Under the pieces are notes generated by a model. The model had not been told where the DNA came from. It saw only the letters and a list, made by a program, of their open reading frames with translations, and made no database searches. Shown in pieces: positions 4,172-21,899 of a stretch of 24,176 bases of DNA. Positions within the stretch are counted from its first letter, which is position 1, and every line of letters begins with the position of its first letter. The translations under genes and the position numbers were made by a program. The stretch comes from a bacterium. Lineage in GTDB: Bacteria > Zixibacteria > MSB-5A5 > GN15 > FEB-12. The stretch is taken from the NCBI GenBank assembly GCA_043811375.1, contig JBDRNJ010000015.1, positions 1-24,176 on the forward strand, in the 5' to 3' direction.

Positions 4172-4497
4172 AAGCGAGTCTCTCCAAGCTTATTGTCCCC
4201 AACATCCAATATCAGTATCGGTTGCCGTCCTGATCGGCTTAAAGAATGATAAGATGATCTCCCGGCGACCCGGAGGCAACAGTTATTTATTGCAGGCCCA
4301 AACCCGAATTGCCTCACAATAAATGTTACCGATGGGGGTCATATTGAAGCTGTCAACCATGTAGGGCAGATCCGGAGCGGACCAGCAGCCGCCAATAGTG
4401 CAAATGATCCAGAAAAGCCCCATGAAAGCATGTTATTTCGAATCAGCGGGACAGCCAAGCCGTTTTCGTCAGCCCTTCTTCCCGCTTCCATAATGTC

Positions 4498-4526
4498 AAT
4501 AGCGGTGCAGGGACTTGAACCCCGGA
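4498..4526 (-). repeat. 29-bp direct repeat of the tRNA-Met 3' end (distal att site)
   Basis: aatagcggtgcagggacttgaaccccgga is identical to 15206-15234; identity stops abruptly and the rest of the tRNA is absent here. Confidence 0.95.
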
Positions 4527-4616
4527 TTCCTCAAGAGGGGTTTTTGCAACCCCCTTAGAACCACCGACTTATGCGGTTATCCCGTTTCCTACCTTCGAGT
4601 TACTTTTTTTATGCAG

Positions 4617-4677
4617 TGTGACCTGTTTTGATGATTTTTGACCAGTTTTGACCCCCAAGTGTCACAAATCTGTCACA
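4617..4677. repeat. att-proximal short repeats: three phased 10-mers and TGTCACA direct repeats (putative integrase arm / Xis sites)
   Basis: acctgttttg-atgatttttg-accagttttg (4621-4650); tgtcaca at 4660-4666 and 4671-4677; inverted tgtgac at 4617-4622. Confidence 0.5.
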
Positions 4678-5387
4678 GCGATTCATGACAGTGGACGAAA
4701 ACTCCCGCCACGAGTGCTCGTATCGATGATAACGCGCAGTGCTGGCAGTGAGTGAATACCGAGAGGGTCCGAATAGACCTGTCGCTCGTGGGTTTTTAGT
4801 GCATGGCCTATTTTCCGGGAGCCTTGAATGTGGATGACACTGTCCGTGGAAAAACGGGACTGGAATACTCGGCTCAAGTATCCATTTGCCAACCCACGGC
4901 GCATCAATTGGTTGTCCTGACACAAGAGAGACTTGTGACGAATGAGTGACAAGGTTTGTCACAGGGAAATGGCATTGTTTTCACGAAGTGAAGGATCGGC
5001 GCTGCGAGCATCCCACCGGCGTACGAATGACACTGAATCGGGCACTCCTTCTCTATTAGACGCCCTTCTGGTCGCCATGTCGGTCAGTCGATTCTGGCGA
5101 ATCCTATGATTTCAGGAACCCGTCTCGCAAGGCCCGCTTGGTGCGCTGTGAATCCGGTCTTGACGGTAAAGACGCCCTGGTATCAGATGTTCTTGAGCGC
5201 TTTGCTGCCGAATCGCGACCAGACTCCAGTTGCACATCACTTGCCGCGAACGTGCACGTCTAGCTGTATTCCCGTCCAGCCCACCTCCCAATTCTTAGCT
5301 GTAGGCACCACAAGAATGCCCAGAGTTTCTATCCCAAAAGCCTTTATCACGGAACGGTCTATGTCAAGGGTGGCACTCCCGTCCTTG

Positions 5388-5535
5388 ATGGTCTCCCGTC
5401 AGCACTTCTACGATATCAAGAAGGCCTGGGAGAGTCAAGGTTTAGAGGGGCTTTGGAGAATCCTTAAAAGGGAGGTCAGAGTCTGGATTCTGTTTCGACC
5501 TCCCAGCTTAAACGGCCATGTAGAGAGGTCGCAAG
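5388..5535 (+). pseudogene. IS481-family-like transposase remnant
   Basis: VSRQHFYDIKKAWESQGLEGL resembles the IS481 N-terminal HTH; PSLNGHVERSQ resembles the PxxNGxVER motif of the DDE core; the sequence between them is missing. Confidence 0.5.
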
Positions 5536-5702
5536 TGCAAGCAACGTCAGGCAAGACTCCGCGTCCCGCCGGCTGCTGCCGGCAACGATTGAAGTCAGCT
5601 AAGGGAGCAATCTGAAAATTAGATGGCACTTGCAGAAGAGCGCCGGTTAACATATCTTCTTTATCGAAATCGTCACTGGGACCATCATGAAGACGACTTG
5701 AC

Positions 5703-7226
5703 ATGGAAGACATATCGGGCACACAAAGGAGGACCCTGTTTCGCCATCCCTTAGCCGCTGTCGGCGGCGCCCTGGCGACAGCCGGCCTGTTTCTCTTTCT
5801 AATCCTCCTCCTCTACGACATCACCAGCGGCGAGGAAAATCCATATCGGTCACTTCTCACGTTCGTGGTCGCCCCTTCTGTAATGGTAATCGGTACCGTT
5901 CTTTTCCTCGTTTCGGTATGGATCCAGGTCCGTACCGCACGTAAGCAGGGCGAAGCAGTACGATTCTCACTCTCACTTGACACAACCGATCCTCGATACG
6001 TGAGAAACCTCTGGGTCTTCCTCGTTCTCTCGGCGATCTTCGTCTTTCTCACGGCTTACGGCGGCACACGAGTATACGAAGCCACCGATTCGGTTGCCTT
6101 TTGCGGCGAAACCTGCCACGATGTTATGGATCCCCAATATGTAACCTACCATCATTCTCCGCACGCCAGGATTTCCTGTGCCGAATGCCACATCGGCCCG
6201 GGAGCTTCATTCTGGGTTAGGTCCAAAATCGACGGAATCCGGCAGGTCATAGCCACTATACGGAACACGTATTCGCGTCCCATTCCAACACCCGTCCACA
6301 ATCTCCGCCCGGCCCAGGAAACATGCGAGACATGTCACTGGCCGCAACAGTTCTATGGGGACAAGTTTGTCACCCACACGTATTATCGCACCGATGAAGC
6401 CAATTCGCCCTGGACAATCAGCATGCGGGTGCGAATCGGCGGTGGCAATCCGCGCACCGGCAGTCCCGAGGGGATCCACTGGCATATGCTGACGGAGAAC
6501 GTCATTGAGTACGTTGCCACCAATCCCAAGCGCCAGACGATCTCCTGGACTCGGGTAATCACCCCAACCGGTGATACGACTACGTATGTCAACCAGGACG
6601 TCGATTCGCCGGACACCGTCATTGGCTCGACGGCAATGGTCAGGCGTTTCGATTGTATGGACTGTCACAATCGTCCCAGCCACACTTTTCAACCGCCAGC
6701 GGTGGCCATCAACCAGGCTCTCAAATCCGGCCAGCTTTCGGGAAAGCTGCCTTACATACGCCTTAAAGCCGTCGAATTGCTGAACGCCGAATATGAGACC
6801 AAACAGGAAGCACTGGCAACTATCGCCTCAGGCATAAAGGACTATTACCTAGAAGATTACCCCAGTATGGCCCCCGAGATTCGCCCGGAAATGGAGGAAG
6901 CAATCCCCATCCTTCAAGAGATCTTCGAGGACAACTTTTTCCCGGAAATGAAAACGGACTACCGAGTTCGCGAAAACAATCTGAGTCACTTCGTCAATGA
7001 TGGCTGTTTTCGCTGCCACAACGAGTCGATGGTCAATCGAGAGGGTAACTCCATGGCTACTGCCTGTACAACTTGTCACCTAATTGTGGCGCAGGGCCCA
7101 TCGGAAGAATACGGTGTCCTTGAAGCGAACCTCACGGGACTGGAGTTCAGGCACCCGGAGGATATTGACGAGGCCTGGAAAGAGATGAAGTGCACAGATT
7201 GCCATGACCCAGCATCCGGTTACTAG
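5703..7226 (+). CDS. NapC/NirT-domain inner-membrane multiheme cytochrome c, ImcH-like (7 heme motifs)
   Basis: Three N-terminal hydrophobic helices; FCGETCH (CX3CH) plus 6 CxxCH (CAECH, CETCH, CMDCH, CFRCH, CTTCH, CTDCH); NapC-like SPHARISCAECHIGPGA..SKIDG. Confidence 0.85.
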   Translation: MEDISGTQRRTLFRHPLAAVGGALATAGLFLFLILLLYDITSGEENPYRSLLTFVVAPSVMVIGTVLFLVSVWIQVRTARKQGEAVRFSLSLDTTDPRYVRNLWVFLVLSAIFVFLTAYGGTRVYEATDSVAFCGETCHDVMDPQYVTYHHSPHARISCAECHIGPGASFWVRSKIDGIRQVIATIRNTYSRPIPTPVHNLRPAQETCETCHWPQQFYGDKFVTHTYYRTDEANSPWTISMRVRIGGGNPRTGSPEGIHWHMLTENVIEYVATNPKRQTISWTRVITPTGDTTTYVNQDVDSPDTVIGSTAMVRRFDCMDCHNRPSHTFQPPAVAINQALKSGQLSGKLPYIRLKAVELLNAEYETKQEALATIASGIKDYYLEDYPSMAPEIRPEMEEAIPILQEIFEDNFFPEMKTDYRVRENNLSHFVNDGCFRCHNESMVNREGNSMATACTTCHLIVAQGPSEEYGVLEANLTGLEFRHPEDIDEAWKEMKCTDCHDPASGY

Positions 7227-10188
7227 GACCCGAGCCATCGCACCACCAAAAGACTATTCCCATTCAGCCCGGCGCAATCCAATCCTCTCCGCCATGGTCG
7301 TCGTATTAGCTTTAGCCGGTAACTCACTGGCGCAGAGCGACATAGAAACGTGCTTGTCCTGCCACGAGGATGTGGACCTCACCGGGATGAACAAGTACGG
7401 ATCGGAGGTATCCGTATATGTGGCACTGGATAGGTTCCAAGCGTCAGTGCACGGCGAAATGGAGTGCGTGGATTGTCACCTTGACTTGGCTGACGCCGAG
7501 GACTATCCCCATGACGAGGAACTGGCACCGGTTGACTGCAGCCAGTGCCATGATGACGTCTTTGCTGTACACGACCGGAGCGCACACAGCCGCACCGCGA
7601 ACTGCGAGGACTGCCATGGCTACCATAACGTGGTGTCACCGGCCGATTCGGACGTAGGGGAAGGTGGTGTAAACTGCGGCAAATGCCACCGGGAAATCGC
7701 CGCCGAGTACGACCGGTCACTTCACGGTCGAGCTGTCCACACCGGCGCTCCCCTGGCTCCACGCTGCTGGGACTGCCACGGGGCTCACAACATAGCCGGT
7801 GATCGGGCCGTAGCTTCGAGCATTACAAGATTCAATATCCCGTTCCTGTGCGGCAACTGCCACAAAGAGGGAACTGACGTTACACGGAAGTATGACATTC
7901 ACGAAGACAGCATCCTTCTGCACTATTCGCAATCTATTCACGGTTACGGTCTATACACCCAGGGTCTGATCGTGACGGCTGTTTGCACCGATTGTCACAC
8001 CGCCCACAACGTGCGCGATCACACCGACCCGGAATCAAGCATCCATCGCGGCAACGTCGCCACCACCTGCCTGAAGTGTCATGGTCTAATCGAAAAGGTC
8101 CACCGCAAGGTGATTCGGGGCGAGCTATGGCAGAAGGAACCTCACAAGATACCCGCCTGTGTCGATTGCCACTCCCCTCACCGAATTCGTCGCGTCTTCT
8201 ATGAGGAAGGAATTGCTGACAAGGAATGTTTGCAGTGTCACGCTCAGCAGAACCTGACCATGGTGAGAAACGGCGTCACCGTCTCCATCTACGTCGACAC
8301 GCTCGAGACCCACAGTTCCGCCCACAGGAGCGTCACCTGTGCCCAGTGCCACACCGGGGCGAGCCCCGTACACGAGCGTCCTTGTGCCACTATGGCCGAG
8401 CGGGTGGACTGCTCCATATGCCACAGCGACGCAGTCGTCGCCTTTGACTCCAGCACGCACGGGCAGCTGGCAGACCGCGGCGATCCGATGGCGCCAACCT
8501 GTATCGAGTGTCACGGCCGCCACAATGTTCTCCGCCAAGTGAATCCCAGTTCCCGCACATATCCGCGAAACGTGCCGTCGCTCTGTGCCGATTGCCATCG
8601 CCATGGAGCACCCGCGGCAAAGCGGCTCGAAGATGATCACGAACGGGTGAACGAATACGTGATGAGCATCCACGGGAAAGGTCTTCTCGAAAGCGGCCTG
8701 ATTGTGACCGCCATGTGTACCAACTGCCATACGGCGCACAACGTGCTGCCGCCCGGCAACCCCGCTTCAACCGTTCACAAAGAGAACATTCCCCACACGT
8801 GCGCCAAATGCCACATCGGCATCTTCGAAACGTTCGTCACCAGTATTCATTCACCCACAGTAAGCGACTCCGAAGAGCCGTTGCCAACCTGCGATGACTG
8901 CCATCAGTCCCACGCCATCGTGCGCACCGACAACGAGGGATTCAAGCTGCAGATCATGAACCGGTGCGGACGATGTCATCAGGATGTGACCGACACCTAC
9001 TTCGAAACGATCCACGGCAAGGTTTCCAAACTCGGCTATACCGTCGCCGCCAAGTGCTATGATTGCCACGGAGCCCATGACATCCTGCCGACGGTGGACC
9101 TTGCTTCCAGCCTCTCCCGACAAAACATCGTTGCCACCTGCAGCGCCTGCCATCCCGGGTCGCACCGGCAGTTCGCGGGCTACCTGACACACGCCACGCA
9201 CCACGACCGAAACAAGTATCCCATCCTATTCTATACCTTCTGGTTTATGACCTTTCTGCTCGTTGGCACGCTCGTGTTGGCCGGAACGCACACCATCCTC
9301 TGGTTACCGCGGTCCTTCCAGGCCATGAGAGCACACAAGAAACTCCGCGCCACCTACCATGGAAAACTGGAGTACCGTCGTTTTAAGCGCCTGCACAGCG
9401 TCCTTCACATTATGATCATAGTCAGCTTTCTGGGCCTGGCAGCAACCGGCATGACCCTGAAATTCTCTTACCTGGAGTGGGCTCAGTGGCTCTCCCGGAT
9501 GTTGGGCGGTTTCGAATCGGCATCTTACATCCACCGCCTATGCGCTCTTATAACATTCGCCTACTTTGTCACCCACCTCGCTGACTTGTACGTCCAGAAA
9601 CGGCGAAGCCGAAAAACCTGGCGTGAGTGCATGCAAAGTACTCGCTCCATGCTGCCCGGCAAAACCGACGTGCAAGAACTTATTGGAAGCCTGAAATGGT
9701 TCGTGGGTCGCGGTCCCCGGCCGCGATACGGACGCTGGACGTATTGGGAAAAGTTTGACTATTTTGCAGTTTTTTGGGGAGTGGCGGTGATCGGGATCAC
9801 CGGCCTCATGCTATGGTTCCCGGAGTTCTTCACGCACTTCCTGCCCGGATGGATAATCAACGTGGCAACCATCATTCACTCCGATGAAGCCCTGCTTGCC
9901 ACCGGCTTCATTTTCACCGTACATTTCTTCAACACCCATTTCCGACCCGACAAATTTCCGATGGATACCGTCATTTTCACCGGCCGCGTTCCGATTGAGG
10001 AACTCCGGCAGGACCGACCGCGCGAATACGAGGCATTGGTGAGAACGCGACAGCTGAAACGCTACCTCGCCGAGCCGCTTCCGCCCGTAATCGTCCGCAC
10101 CATCCGGGTGTTGGCATCATTGGCGCTGCTGGTCGGCCTCGCGCTCATCGGGCTCATTATCTACGCCGAGATATTCGGATACCGTTAG
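7204..10188 (+). CDS. Multiheme cytochrome c / cytochrome b (FdnI/HydC-like) fusion, CbcL-like, 21 CxxCH
   Basis: Signal-like segment (LALAGNSLA-Q); 21 CxxCH motifs; C-terminal polytopic domain with YRRF..H..LH, IHR, YGRWTYWEKFDYFAVFWG, IIHSDEALLA..VHFFNTH; overlaps the upstream gene by 23 bp; start could be 7294. Confidence 0.88.
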   Translation: MTQHPVTRTRAIAPPKDYSHSARRNPILSAMVVVLALAGNSLAQSDIETCLSCHEDVDLTGMNKYGSEVSVYVALDRFQASVHGEMECVDCHLDLADAEDYPHDEELAPVDCSQCHDDVFAVHDRSAHSRTANCEDCHGYHNVVSPADSDVGEGGVNCGKCHREIAAEYDRSLHGRAVHTGAPLAPRCWDCHGAHNIAGDRAVASSITRFNIPFLCGNCHKEGTDVTRKYDIHEDSILLHYSQSIHGYGLYTQGLIVTAVCTDCHTAHNVRDHTDPESSIHRGNVATTCLKCHGLIEKVHRKVIRGELWQKEPHKIPACVDCHSPHRIRRVFYEEGIADKECLQCHAQQNLTMVRNGVTVSIYVDTLETHSSAHRSVTCAQCHTGASPVHERPCATMAERVDCSICHSDAVVAFDSSTHGQLADRGDPMAPTCIECHGRHNVLRQVNPSSRTYPRNVPSLCADCHRHGAPAAKRLEDDHERVNEYVMSIHGKGLLESGLIVTAMCTNCHTAHNVLPPGNPASTVHKENIPHTCAKCHIGIFETFVTSIHSPTVSDSEEPLPTCDDCHQSHAIVRTDNEGFKLQIMNRCGRCHQDVTDTYFETIHGKVSKLGYTVAAKCYDCHGAHDILPTVDLASSLSRQNIVATCSACHPGSHRQFAGYLTHATHHDRNKYPILFYTFWFMTFLLVGTLVLAGTHTILWLPRSFQAMRAHKKLRATYHGKLEYRRFKRLHSVLHIMIIVSFLGLAATGMTLKFSYLEWAQWLSRMLGGFESASYIHRLCALITFAYFVTHLADLYVQKRRSRKTWRECMQSTRSMLPGKTDVQELIGSLKWFVGRGPRPRYGRWTYWEKFDYFAVFWGVAVIGITGLMLWFPEFFTHFLPGWIINVATIIHSDEALLATGFIFTVHFFNTHFRPDKFPMDTVIFTGRVPIEELRQDRPREYEALVRTRQLKRYLAEPLPPVIVRTIRVLASLALLVGLALIGLIIYAEIFGYR

Positions 10189-10279
10189 GTATCGAGGTCG
10201 CCGATTACCCGGGCAAACAAAAAGCGCATCCAAAGAGGCGCTTCCTGCAATCCGGTTGCACTCTGACCGCGCAACGGTT

Positions 10280-10864
10280 CTATTCGTCCTCGCCCACTTT
10301 CTTAGGTGCGGCCTCTTCCTTGGTACTCGCCTCCTTCGCCGGAATCATGTGGATGCCCTTGGCTTTCATCTTCTCGAAATCGAAGTCCTTGGCCAGGGCC
10401 GCCAGCTTCGGCGGGGCTTTCTCGTGATGACACCGCATGCAAGTGTTCTCATCCGGCATCAAAAGACCGTTGGCGATCGACTTCTCTCTGTCCTCCATGA
10501 TGCTCTTCTTCTTGTAGGCGCTACCCGGACCGTGGCACGCCTCGCACTGAACGCCGGTCAGCAGTTCACCTTTGGCAGTGGTGCCTGTGGTGTAGTACTT
10601 CTGGTGTTCTTCGCACTTCTGGTTCTCGGCCGACAGACTGTCCCATGCCCAGGCGTGTTTGGTAGCCAGCCAAGACTCATAGATGCCGCTCTTCTTATGA
10701 CAGATTTTGCACTTGTCGGCGCCGATGTACTCGTATTTGACTTCCTCTGCTGCAGCTTTCGCCGCCGCTTTCACTGTCTCTTTCGCTTCCTCCTTGGCAT
10801 CCTCCGCTGTCGTGCTCAGGGAGATCGCTAGGAGCATCGCTGCGAGAAAAAAAAGATGCTTCAT
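10280..10864 (-). CDS. Periplasmic cytochrome c554-family protein (3 CxxCH)
   Basis: Signal peptide; YIGADKCKICH, W..TKHA.AWDSL, GVQCEACHGPGS, CMRCH; AAGGAGG RBS. Confidence 0.85.
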   Translation of the reverse strand: MKHLFFLAAMLLAISLSTTAEDAKEEAKETVKAAAKAAAEEVKYEYIGADKCKICHKKSGIYESWLATKHAWAWDSLSAENQKCEEHQKYYTTGTTAKGELLTGVQCEACHGPGSAYKKKSIMEDREKSIANGLLMPDENTCMRCHHEKAPPKLAALAKDFDFEKMKAKGIHMIPAKEASTKEEAAPKKVGEDE

Positions 10865-11187
10865 GACTTTGTATCCTCCTTATGCTAAGGGCACACCTTT
10901 CTTTAGTCTATTCTGATTTATACCTTGTATCACCATATATAAGTTCTTATTAAAGCGAGGTCAAGACTCCCGATAGTCAAATGTTAAACACTGTTGTCGT
11001 CCGCGCGTTCCTATGAATATCAAGGACATTCCGTCCTGAAACGTTTGGAAGTCCCTGACGTACAGTAGGTTTGTGACGCCTGCCAACTTGCGTGGCAGGC
11101 CCCCCTGGCGGGAACCTCCGAAGAATAATTTATTGTCGATACTAGCGAAAAAAATCCACGGCTGTTGTATATCCGCGAGCCGGCATC

Positions 11188-11277
11188 ACCATGGGCGTCA
11201 CCGGTGTTGGCCGCGGCCCGGGCTTTGTCTTTCGTGGGGTGGCATTTCAGACATGTGTGTTCCACCGTCAGATATCC
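11188..11277 (-). pseudogene. Orphan C-terminal fragment of a multiheme cytochrome c
   Basis: GYLTVEHTCLKCHPTKDKARAAANTGDAHG with one CxxCH and a terminal His; no signal peptide or RBS; in-frame stop a short way upstream. Confidence 0.4.
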
Positions 11278-11331
11278 GCTGGCAGAACCTCTACGTCCTT
11301 GCCCCCACGCCTGTCACGGGTAGGGTTGGCT

Positions 11332-11364
11332 AAAGAAGGCCCCTCCCTGGTGAAGGGGCCTTTT
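11332..11364 (-). terminator. Rho-independent terminator after the porin-cytochrome operon (possibly bidirectional)
   Basis: AAGGCCCCT-9nt-AGGGGCCTT stem, followed by TTCTTT on minus and TTTT on plus, about 20 nt after the stop at 11383. Confidence 0.75.
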
Positions 11365-11382
11365 GGTTCCGCGTTAAAGCTG

Positions 11383-12480
11383 CTAGTGAGCAGAAATCAG
11401 TTTCGGTCCAACAGTAGCAGGCGCACCATTTGGATCGCCGGTGTTCAAAAAGTTTATCGATGACTTCAGAAGGGCGACCGCGTAATCGGTGTTGTGTACA
11501 CCAATCGAGCGATCCTCTTCCACAAACATGAAGTTGTACACGGCACCGGCTGAGTCTGCCGTGGTCACAACCCGACCACTAACGGGATGGTGGTCCGAGT
11601 CAACCAGCCCGGCCGATTCCAGAAGCATGCCGAGGCTGTCTAGAAGATGGTGCAGCTCGGTCTGTACTCCATCGACGTTCCCGTCACCGTCGAAGTCCTC
11701 AACGTCTTCACGATCTACCGAAGAGACCGGGTCAGAACCGTGGCAGCCGTCAATATTGCAGCCGGTTATGTTCTCGAAGCCGCGATCTTCATTCTTCATA
11801 TTCCAGCTATGGCCGCCAATGCTCTCGTGCGCCGAAGCGCTCATATGGCACGAGGGGCAGCCGTTAGTCACGCCTGTCTCGTGCCACGAGCCATCATAGT
11901 CGTCATAGCCCGCGAATTCGTAGGCATTCTCGCCGATTAACATATCCGATTGATTGCTATGGTGCGGGCCAAAGTGTGAACTCAATGTTACACCCGCATA
12001 CACATAGTCATTCACGTCTCTGCGACTATGGTGACAGGAAGCGCAGATGTTCGAATTCCCGCGATCATATGACGCACCGTTTTCCAGCACCACTGGCTGG
12101 GTTACCCTCACGCTGAAGTTGCCGTTGGAATGAGGCTCGTGGCATGTGAAGCAATCAAACGCTGAGAAACGATCTCCACTAGCCGGTACACCGGTTACCC
12201 TGGCAATAAACCCTTCGCTGGTGTGACATTGCTCACAGCTTGCGTAACCAGGTGATGTCAACCGGTTCCGATCAGTATTGTTTCCCGAGCCGTGGACCGA
12301 ATAGGCGAACTGTGCCAGGACGCCCCGGTTAGGACCGCTTCCGTCGCTGTGACATTCCAGACAGCCGATGGAAGCGTCTTCCTCTATCACGTCAACGTCG
12401 CCGGTGATTTCGCGGTCGCAGCCTGCCGACAGCATGGCCATCGCTGCCAGCAGTACCATTGTTACCCTCAACCGATTCAT
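11383..12480 (-). CDS. Multiheme cytochrome c lipoprotein (5 CxxCH + 1 CX4CH), probable outer-membrane/surface component
   Basis: AGGAGG RBS before ATG 12480; lipobox MLSAG-C; CLECH, CEQCH, CFTCH, CASCH, CPSCH, CNIDGCH; DFDGDG motif; C-terminal YNFMFVEEDRSIGVHNTDYAVALLKSSI helical domain. Confidence 0.85.
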   Translation of the reverse strand: MNRLRVTMVLLAAMAMLSAGCDREITGDVDVIEEDASIGCLECHSDGSGPNRGVLAQFAYSVHGSGNNTDRNRLTSPGYASCEQCHTSEGFIARVTGVPASGDRFSAFDCFTCHEPHSNGNFSVRVTQPVVLENGASYDRGNSNICASCHHSRRDVNDYVYAGVTLSSHFGPHHSNQSDMLIGENAYEFAGYDDYDGSWHETGVTNGCPSCHMSASAHESIGGHSWNMKNEDRGFENITGCNIDGCHGSDPVSSVDREDVEDFDGDGNVDGVQTELHHLLDSLGMLLESAGLVDSDHHPVSGRVVTTADSAGAVYNFMFVEEDRSIGVHNTDYAVALLKSSINFLNTGDPNGAPATVGPKLISAH

Positions 12481-12558
12481 GTTACCTCCTGTAGAGTAAG
12501 TAAAATCATAATCATTTAGCATCGCCTTTCCACGCCGGTGAATGTGGGTAGCCCGGTC

Positions 12559-14115
12559 CTACAATTCAAAGATGATATTCGCCTGTACCACGTTGGCTGT
12601 GTAATACTCCCGGTATGGAACCGAGCTGTCTGCCATATTATCGAAATTGTGCGCAGAGTATATCACCTCGAGTATTGCGGTTTCGAGCAAGCGGTGTTTT
12701 CCTGTAAACTTCACCTCGAAAGATTCAACATCAACGTCCTGCCGTCCACGATAGTAAACACCTCCAAAACCCGCCTGTACGCGACGGTACTCGCGACTGG
12801 TGACCTCACCTGACAGGACATGCTCTTCATATTCAAATGTACCGGCGCTATTTTTGTATTCACCAGTACCGTAGGCATAAGAGACGGTAAGTTCACCATA
12901 CTCAGCGCGAGTAACCGAGAGATCACCTGAAAACCGCACCAAATCGACGCTGCTGCCTATATCGTCATTGTCTCTTCGGCGATCCTCCAGTTTAGCACGG
13001 ACAAACAAGTTCGAATAGCGGTAACGCACCGAGAGCCAATGGCGTGAATACTCGCGATTTCCCGTGAGTGTCCGCCCGGCATCAACGTTGTCTTCGTCGA
13101 AGTTCAGCCCGGCGCGGAGAGTCAGTCGCTGCGTCGGGACTAACCATCCCGACAGAGAATAGCCGCTGCCGGAGCGCTCATCATAAACGTCATCGTTCAG
13201 GTGGTACCGATATCCGAACATAATGCCACCGCGGCTGCGCCAGTTTTTGCCTATCTGGATCGACTGGCTGATATTGTCCGTCGCTGATATGTCGCCGGTA
13301 TGCCGGGCACGGTCGAACAGGAAACTGTATTTCGCGTGGTACCCGAGTTTGTGAGTGTATTTTGCAGCGCCCCAAACCGTATTAGCGGTCAGCGTGTCGG
13401 ATCGGTCTACAACTTCGTGTTCGTAGTGTTGAAAGCCGCCACTGAGTACAACATCATCGAAGGATGGCACCGGTGTGTAGGCGGTCAGTCGGACGCACTG
13501 CGAAGAGCGATCGCCGGTCGCTTCAAAGTCATCACTATAATCTGATGTTCGGTATTCTACCCGTGCGAGCCTGCGCTTCTTCTTGAACTCAACCCCGACA
13601 TTGGCAAACTGATTGAGGTAGTCTACCTTGCCGATGCTCGAAAAGCCATCGGTCTCGAACAGCCCCAGCGAGCTGCCGTGCTTTTCGGTGACGCCAAAAC
13701 CTCCGAATAGCTTGACATATTGGATTGGTTGAACCCACAGCGAACCATTAGTCGTGCGCCGGCGCGTGAACCTGGTATCGTCAAAGTCGTAACTCCGACG
13801 ATAAGCAGTGTGTCGAATGGTCACACCACCGAGTCCGGGACGCGCGAGCCCAAGAGCAAGGCGACGGTTGTTCATGGTGATATTACGGAGATCTCCCGTC
13901 AAGCGCATTCCGTTGTCCCACTGGTACCGGAATCGTTCCAGAGAAAGTGCCAAGCCGTCGTACAAGTTAAAGGTTGGCTGGTTTACTCCGAGGTTACCTT
14001 CGAGGTCGGTGAAGACATAACCGGCCCGTACCGTGCCATCGTACTCGGCTGCCGGGAGGGAAGCTGTCACCAGAAGGGCTGTCACAACGATCAAGATGTA
14101 CTGTATATTCTTCAT
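12559..14115 (-). CDS. MtrB/PioB-like outer-membrane beta-barrel porin
   Basis: Signal peptide; alternating amphipathic beta-strand pattern rich in Y/G/R/S/D; no heme motifs; C-terminal VVQANIIFEL; directly downstream of a decaheme gene; GAGGAGG RBS. Confidence 0.75.
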   Translation of the reverse strand: MKNIQYILIVVTALLVTASLPAAEYDGTVRAGYVFTDLEGNLGVNQPTFNLYDGLALSLERFRYQWDNGMRLTGDLRNITMNNRRLALGLARPGLGGVTIRHTAYRRSYDFDDTRFTRRRTTNGSLWVQPIQYVKLFGGFGVTEKHGSSLGLFETDGFSSIGKVDYLNQFANVGVEFKKKRRLARVEYRTSDYSDDFEATGDRSSQCVRLTAYTPVPSFDDVVLSGGFQHYEHEVVDRSDTLTANTVWGAAKYTHKLGYHAKYSFLFDRARHTGDISATDNISQSIQIGKNWRSRGGIMFGYRYHLNDDVYDERSGSGYSLSGWLVPTQRLTLRAGLNFDEDNVDAGRTLTGNREYSRHWLSVRYRYSNLFVRAKLEDRRRDNDDIGSSVDLVRFSGDLSVTRAEYGELTVSYAYGTGEYKNSAGTFEYEEHVLSGEVTSREYRRVQAGFGGVYYRGRQDVDVESFEVKFTGKHRLLETAILEVIYSAHNFDNMADSSVPYREYYTANVVQANIIFEL

Positions 14116-14124
14116 GTCTCCTCC

Positions 14125-15072
14125 TCAGCCATCTATATTGTGACAGAAGCACGACTTGGCCGCGCCTCCGATCCTGGCTCCAAGCTGCGGATCAAGGAGC
14201 GTTCTGCTTATGTGCGACCCGTGTATATCGCTGTGACACTCTATGCAGGCGAACTGCGATCCGATACCGCCATGTTTGGTGCGATGCTGTGGAGGCACTC
14301 CATGGCATTGCATACACAAACGGCTGCCGTTCTGGGTAAGAAGGCGTTCATTGGGGCTGCCGTGCGGCTGATGACAGGCCGTGCAACCATCTCCTTCTGT
14401 AGAAAAGGAAGTCGTTGCCCGGTGTTCAAACATAAAGGGCCCCGACTGCTCCGGATGGCAGGCAGTACAATTGCTGCTCCCGCCGTGTCCGATAATTGCA
14501 TGGTTGCGACCGGTGAAGTCGTGACAATTCATGCAGGTAACGGCCTGGTCGGTGAGAGGATGGTTGGAGCGCCGGCGAAACTGGTTTACGACCGAAACGT
14601 GGCAAGTGCTGCAGAATTCACCCTCATCGTCAACCAGCAGGGAACTGTTGTCTGTGTGCACTTGGTGGCAGGACGTGCATGAAAAATCCTGTGTCTGGTG
14701 CGGATCGAACCCTATAACGCCGGACTCCGTGTGTGGGTTGTGACAGGCAGTGCAGGTAGCCTCAGTCTCACTGGGGGATGCTGTAGTGGGGTTCAGTATA
14801 TTTCCTATCTCCGGATCATCGACGTGCATCTCGCCACCTTCGTGGCAACTGACACAACTGATGTCGACAGTTGCATTCTTATTGTCGGAACTTAGCCTGT
14901 GGGCGGTCCTCGCCAGACCGTCATTATATGCATCGTGGCACATCAGGCAGGTTTCGTCGTCAGTCTCCGAGTTCTGTGGTAGTGCTGATGCCGGGAACAA
15001 ACCCAGCATAATTGTGGTTGTAAGTATTGTTAGGTGGGGGATGTATTTGAGCCTGAAAATGCCAGGAAACAT
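14125..15072 (-). CDS. MtrA/DmsE/PioA-family periplasmic decaheme cytochrome c
   Basis: Signal peptide; 10 CxxCH; family motifs QF..RSNHPL, CHPEQSGPFMFEH, CTACHQPHGSPNERLL..LCMQCH, CHSDIHGS; extra C-terminal CFCH. Confidence 0.9.
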   Translation of the reverse strand: MFPGIFRLKYIPHLTILTTTIMLGLFPASALPQNSETDDETCLMCHDAYNDGLARTAHRLSSDNKNATVDISCVSCHEGGEMHVDDPEIGNILNPTTASPSETEATCTACHNPHTESGVIGFDPHQTQDFSCTSCHQVHTDNSSLLVDDEGEFCSTCHVSVVNQFRRRSNHPLTDQAVTCMNCHDFTGRNHAIIGHGGSSNCTACHPEQSGPFMFEHRATTSFSTEGDGCTACHQPHGSPNERLLTQNGSRLCMQCHGVPPQHRTKHGGIGSQFACIECHSDIHGSHISRTLLDPQLGARIGGAAKSCFCHNIDG

Positions 15073-15207
15073 ATTCTAGTCCCTCCAGATTGCTATCCAC
15101 CAATAGTGATAGCAGTATACATAACTAAATATACCTTTATAGTCGCTTTAACGCAATAATAAAAACACCCCAGCAGGGACTTGTCAAGTAATTATTTGAG
15201 AAAAGAA

Positions 15208-15281
15208 TAGCGGTGCAGGGACTTGAACCCCGGACACGCGGATTATGATTCCGCTGCTCTAACCAGCTGAGCTACACCGCC
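15208..15281 (-). tRNA. tRNA-Met (CAT), probably elongator type; CCA not encoded
   Basis: GGCGGTGTAGCTCAGCTGGTTAGAGCAGCGGAATCATAATCCGCGTGTCCGGGGTTCAAGTCCCTGCACCGCTA folds as a cloverleaf; anticodon stem GCGGA/TCCGC; T-loop GTTCAAG; no initiator GGG/CCC anticodon stem or C1:A72 mismatch. Confidence 0.95.
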
Positions 15282-15306
15282 ATTTCTATGTGATCTCAGA
15301 AACCCG

Positions 15307-17458: not shown

Positions 17459-17795
<337 letters not shown>

Positions 17796-21466: not shown

Positions 21467-21596
21467 ATCATCCGGTCAATTTGCGTTCACACCGCAGTAT
21501 TACTTTGTACCCAGGAAGTGACATTTGGTTTGCAGCGAATAGGTCATGGGATAGATCATTTTATCCTTACCCGATCTCAGATTCTTTTCACCGTTA

Positions 21597-21685
21597 CGGC
21601 AGGTCTTGGCGTCGCCGCAGGCGGTGGTGTGACCTGCCGCCTGACTAATTCGTCAGGTCACACGGCTTTGCCGCAAGATCTAACG
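21597..21685. repeat. Pair of related palindromic elements in inverted orientation (REP-like)
   Basis: cggcaggtc...gacctgccg (21597-21639); second unit cgtcaggtcacac...caagatctaacg resembles the reverse complement of the first. Confidence 0.45.
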
Positions 21686-21899
21686 AAACAGAATTGAGAT
21701 CGCCAAGCCCGACTTCGGAGAACTCGCGATAGTGGATACAATAAATGCCGCTTGCGGCCGGTTACCATCGGCGAAAAGGAAGGGTTGACCGAAGCGCTCA
21801 ACCGGCTCTTATTGCGGCGGTCCCAGAAACAATTGAGGTAAATGGGCCGTAAGGCATTAGTACAATGATATCCGCTATATCCAACAGGAGTAATCGCCA

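Follow-up and report, generated by a model that had tools for sequence, protein, structure and literature searches.

The window analyzed here, a stretch of 24,176 nucleotides (contig JBDRNJ010000015.1, positions 1 to 24,176), comes from a 3.56-Mb, 95% complete, metagenome-derived genome of the Zixibacteria (GCA_043811375.1), designated G000 below; other G numbers denote relatives and C numbers contigs of G000. It contains an intact tRNA-Met(CAT) gene (15207..15282, minus strand), identified by a tRNA scan and the sole match in an Rfam scan of the window and three further loci of the same genome. The 3′ end of this gene, the integration target, is duplicated: positions 4498-4526 repeat positions 15206-15234 in 29 of 29 nucleotides and in the same orientation, and only these two exact copies were found when the whole assembly was scanned. 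As a preliminary description of this DNA had reported, the repeats bracket about 10.7 kb with six intact genes, for multiheme cytochromes and a porin, which are predicted from their sequences to link the inner membrane with the outside of the cell as an extracellular electron transfer (EET) chain. The flanks are the ordinary metabolic genes already described, identified by profile and homology searches as glgA, galT, and an alternative glmU on one side and biotin-carboxylase and enoyl-CoA genes on the other.

The assembly derives from a metagenome and the contig carries repeats at both ends, which would fit a misassembled far copy (4498..4526, minus strand), an artifact that the preliminary description had named as fatal to its reading. 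This is extremely improbable, because a 151-nucleotide contig from X2, one of five DNA runs (X1-X5), independently bridges the copy; it covers 4419-4561, mismatched at 6 positions and gapped once, leaves 79 bases to the left and 35 to the right, and is a single contig of depth 2. The recombinase tail and arm that flank the copy also make biological sense, which argues against misassembly. The five runs contain small shares, and the parts they leave uncovered prove nothing; no RNA run containing the sequence was listed.

The first gene of the segment (5703..7226, plus strand) encodes an ImcH-like inner-membrane cytochrome of 507 residues, with three N-terminal transmembrane helices, a CxxxCH motif at residue 134, and six CxxCH motifs. 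In architecture only, this agrees with the published definition of ImcH (495-519 residues, three N-terminal transmembrane helices, CX3CH next to them, and six CX2CH); no PDB match was obtained. The second (7204..10188, plus strand) encodes a CbcL-like cytochrome of 994 residues, in which 21 CxxCH motifs are fused to a cytochrome-b-like membrane domain with five C-terminal hydrophobic segments and matches to PF01292 and TIGR01583 under the cut-off. It thus combines N-terminal multihemes with a C-terminal cytochrome-b-like domain of four to six transmembrane segments, as CbcL, MtrH, and MtoC do.

The other four genes lie on the minus strand. A triheme cytochrome with a signal-like N terminus (10280..10864), recognized by motif count and profiles, is predicted to be periplasmic; it also matches part of an UshA-like (seleno)protein model, and G000 encodes tRNA-Sec (C9:69469-69564). 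A 365-residue lipoprotein cytochrome (11383..12480; open reading frame [ORF] to 12522), with five CxxCH motifs and one CxxxxCH, is predicted from its lipobox, whose Gly-Cys does not vary among the 13 aligned homologs, to be an outer-membrane or surface partner; it has a partial match to PF22113 under the cut-off, and its predicted model (predicted local distance difference test [pLDDT] 52.8) is of too low quality for a structure search. The porin (12559..14115, 518 residues) matched no Pfam or NCBIfam family, and its structure model (pLDDT 85.4) predicts a 26-strand barrel of the MtrB fold, with 6r2q_B as the best PDB match (E 3e-16, TM 0.78). Beside it lies the gene for an MtrA/DmsE-like decaheme cytochrome (14125..15072), which scores 166 bits against TIGR03508 (cut-off 192) and matches 6r2q_A, the MtrA chain (E 1e-26). 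A decaheme MtrA homolog, under the curated cut-off, thus adjoins a porin of predicted 26-strand fold, the arrangement of MtrAB-type systems. No extracellular decaheme of the MtrC/OmcA kind is encoded in the cluster, which has the 5+1-heme lipoprotein instead. Over the six ORFs, CxxCH motifs number 6+21+3+5+0+10 = 45, and with three atypical motifs (the CxxxCH and CxxxxCH above and a CxCH at the decaheme C terminus) the recount agrees with the earlier one. The segment accounts for 5 of the 10 ORFs in G000 with at least three CxxCH, for 45 of the 72 such motifs, and for its only decaheme.

Element remnants at the tRNA-Met

The ends of the segment have the anatomy of intact tyrosine-integrase islands at tRNA-Met in G012, G014, G050, and G079, with which they share target, core length, far-arm spacing, and a TTGACA box; the attribution of the attachment (att) repeat to this type of integrase is therefore supported. 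At the far end, a tandem motif with an 11-bp period (4661..4677, plus strand) lies 161 bp from the att core, and the same motif stands at +159 to +163 from the att cores of eight junctions (G012, G079, G050, G151, G109, G119, G062, and C42 of G000 itself); none was found at the junctions of C72, G059, and G157. With 12 occurrences genome-wide, the probability of its falling by chance within the 14-nucleotide slot is about 2e-5. Its position and the biology of integrases make it likely that the motif is an integrase arm-binding site. At the other end, the TTGACA box (15182..15187, minus strand), 20 bp after the tRNA, is the sole surviving piece of the tRNA-side arm. In all four intact elements this box, at +19 or +20, precedes an arm motif located +62 to +64 from the tRNA, with the integrase after it, whereas in the window both are absent and homology to the intact elements ends just past the box. 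We accordingly class the segment as a decayed derivative and not as an active member; the four islands differ in keeping integrase and tRNA-side arm and in carrying no multiheme cargo in the fetched stretches. A promoter and terminator scan gave no site at the box, and we therefore make no claim of promoter capture. Exactly at the end of the homology, the box is overlapped by an 11-bp copy of the tRNA T-arm (15173-15183), a possible deletion scar.

Positions 4412-5474 hold scraps of three different mobile genes, which the preliminary description had missed, as it had the lack of an intact integrase. Just outside the island, 4412..4498 (plus strand) is the C-terminal scrap of a large serine recombinase, assigned by homology and Pfam to an earlier element at this tRNA, with 66% identity over 29 residues to the C terminus of an intact recombinase at a tRNA-Glu on C69. 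Positions 4434-4526 are 83% identical to DNA directly 3′ of tRNA-Met in G018, a genome that matches window-type DNA for 64 bp past the tRNA. Within the island, a 37-codon scrap (5129..5239, plus strand) resembles the N-terminal portion of a tyrosine integrase, with 46% identity and 38.1 bits (the highest of 100 shuffles scored 26.2 bits) to an integrase beside tRNA-Asp on C27; it had no significant match to four tRNA-Met integrases, no homolog in a large protein search, and one borderline match in 150 genomes. The third scrap (5394..5474, plus strand) comes from an IS481-family transposase and is 70% identical over 27 residues to a C27 transposase that passes NF033577. No intact integrase was found in the segment: hidden Markov model profile searches of the window for integrases gave nothing significant, and a profile search found no tyrosine recombinase on its contig and ten matches elsewhere in G000. 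Positions 4527-5000 had no relatives at E 0.001 in 40 genomes. A single X1 contig, of depth 2.1 and with 26 bases on its short side, skips the 164 bases 4699-4862, a weak hint of ongoing decay.

The exact repeat, the intact far arm, and the ten recombinase matches elsewhere would fit an island that is still excisable by an integrase acting in trans and that spreads metal respiration today. This we hold to be very improbable, given the missing tRNA-side arm motif and the lack of a tyrosine recombinase on the contig; in addition, near-identical cargo was not found elsewhere in the protein collection (best full-length porin 57%, best CbcL region 79%), and near-identical pieces of both flanks and of the cargo co-occur in the same runs. 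No circle joint of the 4526/15206 type was found among 15 of 51 joints, in sparse contigs from related strains. The horizontally mobile "EET island" first proposed is not upheld, since the element has no integrase, lacks its tRNA-side arm, and is not self-mobile.

The tRNA-Met is an insertion hot spot used by two element types. Its upstream genes (accB/accC and neighbors) are common to G008, G010, and G018, and its downstream side is different in every one of 17 relatives. In the serine-recombinase type, a large gene ends inside the tRNA 3′ end (G020, G013) or is displaced (G012), and in the tyrosine-integrase type the integrase starts about 80-105 bp after the tRNA (G012, G014, G050, G079). 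An apparently intact 13.6-kb element of G000 (C69:22009-35694, L163) lies at tRNA-Glu(CTC), with a large serine recombinase gene that ends inside the tRNA and a far junction formed by an inverted repeat around a short core; its recombinase family also targets tRNA-Met, and the terminal CCGCTA is common to the two tRNAs.

The left flank is not the native neighbor of this tRNA, and the glmU junction is a separate rearrangement. In none of 20 relatives does glmU stand beside tRNA-Met; in 5 of them a divergent glutamate dehydrogenase gene lies near it. The intergenic DNA upstream of glmU in G007, G008, G010, and G018 is found in G000 next to this dehydrogenase gene, on C72. The empty site envisaged in the preliminary description, with tRNA-Met directly adjoining the nucleotidyltransferase-galT-glgA region, is thus not to be expected as framed and was seen in 0 of 20 relatives. 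The relocated DNA is 2.6 kb from a second att-like junction with 32 inner bases in common with the window, so that att junctions in G000 coincide with rearrangements. Besides that of the window, three tRNA-Met att-like junctions occur in G000 (C72:219127, C42:3246, C29:13232), the first between nadA and gdhA, each split from its usual neighbors. A short repeat at the glmU-side breakpoint (4305-4380) recurs after tsaD on C21 and is frequent in sediment contigs. The conserved noncoding stretch C72:221666-221985 (L161), found upstream of glmU in four relatives, has no Rfam match and is a possible regulatory element or small RNA.

Gene trees and the origin of the cytochrome genes

The trees of the cargo conflict with that of the host. 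RpoB places G000 with G010, G008, G018, and G081 (Shimodaira-Hasegawa-like approximate likelihood ratio test [SH-aLRT] 99) and rejects G000+G087 (p 0.001), G000+G087+G101 (p 1e-6), and a grouping with G107. The decaheme and porin trees instead place G000 with G087 and G101, the lipoprotein tree with G087, and the ImcH tree with G101, G087, G146, and G150, and G000+G018 is rejected for porin, lipoprotein, and ImcH (p <0.001). When decaheme, porin, and lipoprotein are concatenated (29 rows), G000+G087 is recovered at 100/100 and G000+G018 is rejected (p 4.5e-5). G087, of a different genus, carries decaheme, porin, lipoprotein, ImcH, and triheme in one cluster, at 60, 52, 71, 67, and 67% identity, and is the top lipoprotein match among 107 family genomes; the porins of its congeners score 539-556 bits versus 651 for its own. 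No porin match was found in G010, G008, and G081, the three genomes nearest by GalT. The porin operons of G146, G150, G135, G090, and G132 and the rest of the G087 contig were left out of the trees. Of the comparison of cargo with core genes that the preliminary description had called for, the outcome is mixed: five of the six genes trace to one cluster or clade in conflict with RpoB, and CbcL has its nearest relatives elsewhere, so that acquisition as one unit of single origin is not supported.

These genes are typical of the lineage. Of 40 relatives, 28 have the porin; among 107 family genomes, 75 have it, 84 have ImcH-like proteins, in two or more subtypes, and 31 have full CbcL-like proteins. 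For 25 porin loci in a named genome collection, the submitters' labels read Zixibacteria in 10 cases, "uncultured Ignavibacteriales" in 10, Deferrimicrobium in 1, and "bacterium" in 4; 14 of 17 CbcL-like matches bearing a taxon name were Zixibacteria or GN15, which makes a Zixibacterial host probable. Gene order was counted in 68 relatives for which some loci had been fetched, a set picked by hits instead of randomly. Of these, 32 have the decaheme-porin-lipoprotein operon, 10 have imcH-cbcL, 6 have imcH no more than 4 kb from the porin, and 7 have a linked triheme. G030, G033, and G036 have the window's order minus cbcL, and G035 and G038 have imcH-cbcL-triheme. The same genes in the same order thus recur across the order without tRNA-Met, contrary to the view of the cluster as a special island unit. 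A general enrichment of porins at tRNA-Met was not seen, with a porin within 15 kb in 1 of the 51 relatives having both (G121), many of the contigs being short. The decaheme-porin-lipoprotein operon of G121 (L232, 11372-15733), which belongs to another clade and has the opposite orientation, stops 650 bp past tRNA-Met, and no att copy was seen there; in other relatives the operon lies beside tRNA-Leu, tRNA-Ser, or tRNA-Glu. Loci L081, L087, L088, and others carry next to cbcL a second decaheme, absent from the window, with a partner of about 575 residues and a TetR-like gene.

This wide distribution, the two porin copies in G012, normal codon use, and saturation of four-fold sites versus G087 (0.29-0.33) would agree with vertical inheritance, the conflict arising from differential loss of ancient paralogues and the cluster having merely moved next to tRNA-Met. 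Such a history is improbable, as it needs parallel losses in G008, G010, G081, G018, and the G087 congeners; pure vertical descent, an early reading, was dropped once closer homologs were added to the trees. The vertical phylogenies that would have undone the preliminary reading were thus not recovered with the fuller set of taxa, the conflict being confined to the family and hidden paralogy a less probable cause of it. With saturated sites and no near-identical cargo in the protein collection, any transfer was old or its donor is unsampled.

Collectively, the att duplication, the family-type arm, the loss of integrase and tRNA-side arm, the protein architectures, and the tree conflict are matters of observation, and they lead us to favor, at a probability of roughly 0.55, the reading that the segment is an integrase-less relic of a tRNA-Met tyrosine-integrase island, which brought in the EET cluster long ago from within the same family. 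The cargo is lineage-typical, not foreign, and was likely exchanged among uncultured bacteria of sediments that are related to one another. In this history, an element of the G012/G014/G050/G079 type may have recombined into the tRNA 3′ end, pushing out the older serine-recombinase element; the island would then have lost its integrase and become fixed, and a later rearrangement would have joined the displaced end to glmU.

Several points weigh against this reading. No same-genus genome was among those compared, and no empty site was seen directly; no multiheme genes occur in the fetched stretches of three fully seen tRNA-Met islands of relatives; and both the end and the strand of the integrase scrap are wrong for the island family, the scrap resembling a different integrase. 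Composition, likewise, gives none of the foreign signal that the preliminary description had looked to it for: GC is 54.4% versus 53.6% (69th percentile), 12.7% of 536 windows are as deviant in tetranucleotides, and codon use is ordinary, for a gene set from crude ORF calls. The trees were built under LG+G4, with no mixture model and mostly in quick mode, for groups picked after the hits were known; the decaheme alone does not reject G000+G018 (p 0.12), support for the ImcH grouping drops to 84/97 with bootstrap, and trees with fewer taxa did not reject vertical descent (porin G000+G018, p 0.25; CbcL G000+G010, p 0.17). CbcL groups with G107, G146, G148, and G150 (SH-aLRT 99; G000+G010 p 0.04) and has no match in G087, where, in contrast to the window, ImcH and the porin operon share a strand. 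Finally, the att-like junctions on C72, C42, and C29 suggest that G000 reshuffles at such sites and that the cargo could have entered later.

Within such a history, att and arm would be the scar of an unrelated island, and the cytochromes would have arrived in one or two insertion sequence (IS) or recombination steps, from a family member or the cell's own chromosome, replacing the integrase end. The IS481 and misoriented integrase scraps between att and cargo, the end of homology just after TTGACA, the different clade of CbcL, the coincidence of breakpoints with att-like junctions, and the G087 cluster, which adjoins an IstB scrap and has no att in the fetched stretch, are all compatible with it. 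We nonetheless judge later entry, the main rival reading, rather unlikely, since both ends are still linked, exact, and in register, five genes have one nearest cluster or clade in common, and extra events are required.

Electron transfer and relation to known systems

Judging by homology, quinol would be oxidized by the ImcH-like or the CbcL-like protein, and electrons could pass through the 21-heme arm and the triheme cytochrome to the decaheme held in the porin, from which the lipoprotein likely passes them to an outside acceptor. In Geobacter, ImcH and CbcL are used at different acceptor potentials. Heme attachment and export would be supplied by host genes outside the island; no heme-maturation gene lies inside it, and two proteins on C72 carry what we take to be a heme-lyase motif, so the conduit is not self-contained, as it had been called. 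Outward, reducing flow is probably the direction, and is favored over oxidation of the RBG-1 type because ImcH, in the accessible text of PMC6295460, is linked only to outward flow and because a lipoprotein partner is present.

Mobility of Mtr genes, including a tRNA-flanked copy, Zixibacterial MtrAB, and within-clade respiratory islands are already in print. The mtrCAB genes have been proposed to be mobile, with a Shewanella insulae copy lying between tandem tRNA-Leu genes, in a paper whose main text does not mention Zixibacteria (PMC8805035); as far as that text goes, the window resembles those systems in its core of decaheme and 26-strand porin and in the accessory inner-membrane cytochromes that travel along, and differs in having a 5+1-heme lipoprotein, no MtrC decaheme, and a defined tyrosine-integrase att and arm. 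Within the same phylum, the accessible description of Zixibacteria RBG-1 (PMC3903129) reports MtrA and MtrB homologs likewise clustered with periplasmic and inner-membrane multihemes, without extracellular cytochromes, and interprets them as serving iron oxidation; the window differs in the lipoprotein cytochrome after the porin, the adjacent ImcH-like and CbcL-like genes, and the att-bounded segment. Likened to Geobacter proteins by architecture, not sequence, the ImcH-like protein agrees exactly and the CbcL-like protein falls within the 3-23 heme range, by the available part of PMC6295460; that 2018 survey reports, in the same part, no mtrAB adjacent to imcH, whereas imcH lies within a few kilobases of the porin in the window and in the 6 of 68 relatives. 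Perchlorate reduction islands, in the portion of PMC4623255 available, are also respiratory modules transferred mainly within narrow phylogenetic groups; they are near-identical in divergent genomes, in contrast to the window's saturated synonymous sites and decayed element. EET-gene transfer near integrases is likewise in print (PMC11434368, accessible text). In the literature covered, mainly open-access and exclusive of supplements, no Zixibacterial tRNA-Met island, no cluster like this one, and no imcH-mtrAB link was found; supplementary figure S9 of the RBG-1 paper may show a similar cluster.

The interest of the segment is limited by a dead element, a cargo common in the lineage, and the published mobility of Mtr genes. 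It nevertheless names a mechanism, site-specific integration at tRNA-Met, and exact ends for a kind of transfer earlier inferred mostly from patchy distribution or nearby transposases. It also places ImcH-like, CbcL-like, and MtrAB-like genes in compact clusters across an uncultured sediment phylum, a linkage that speaks for reduction of metals or electrodes more than for iron oxidation, the role originally put forward for Zixibacteria. A bolder proposal, in which an undescribed tRNA-Met tyrosine-integrase island family shuttles a complete two-potential chain (ImcH, CbcL, periplasmic shuttle, MtrAB-type conduit, and surface lipoprotein) between Zixibacteria, with intact excisable versions still in sediments and the window as a domesticated copy, is speculative and in our estimation unlikely. 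The 9.4-kb gene set is open to heterologous testing.

Other repeats

The left contig end (1-141) is a repeat common to seven contigs, and palindromic or dispersed repeats with many genome copies occupy 17491-17650 and 21586-21761 of the window. On C45, C51, C71, C80, and C83, a repeated element starts with a similar tandem GTCACA motif and is present in nine copies, several per small contig.

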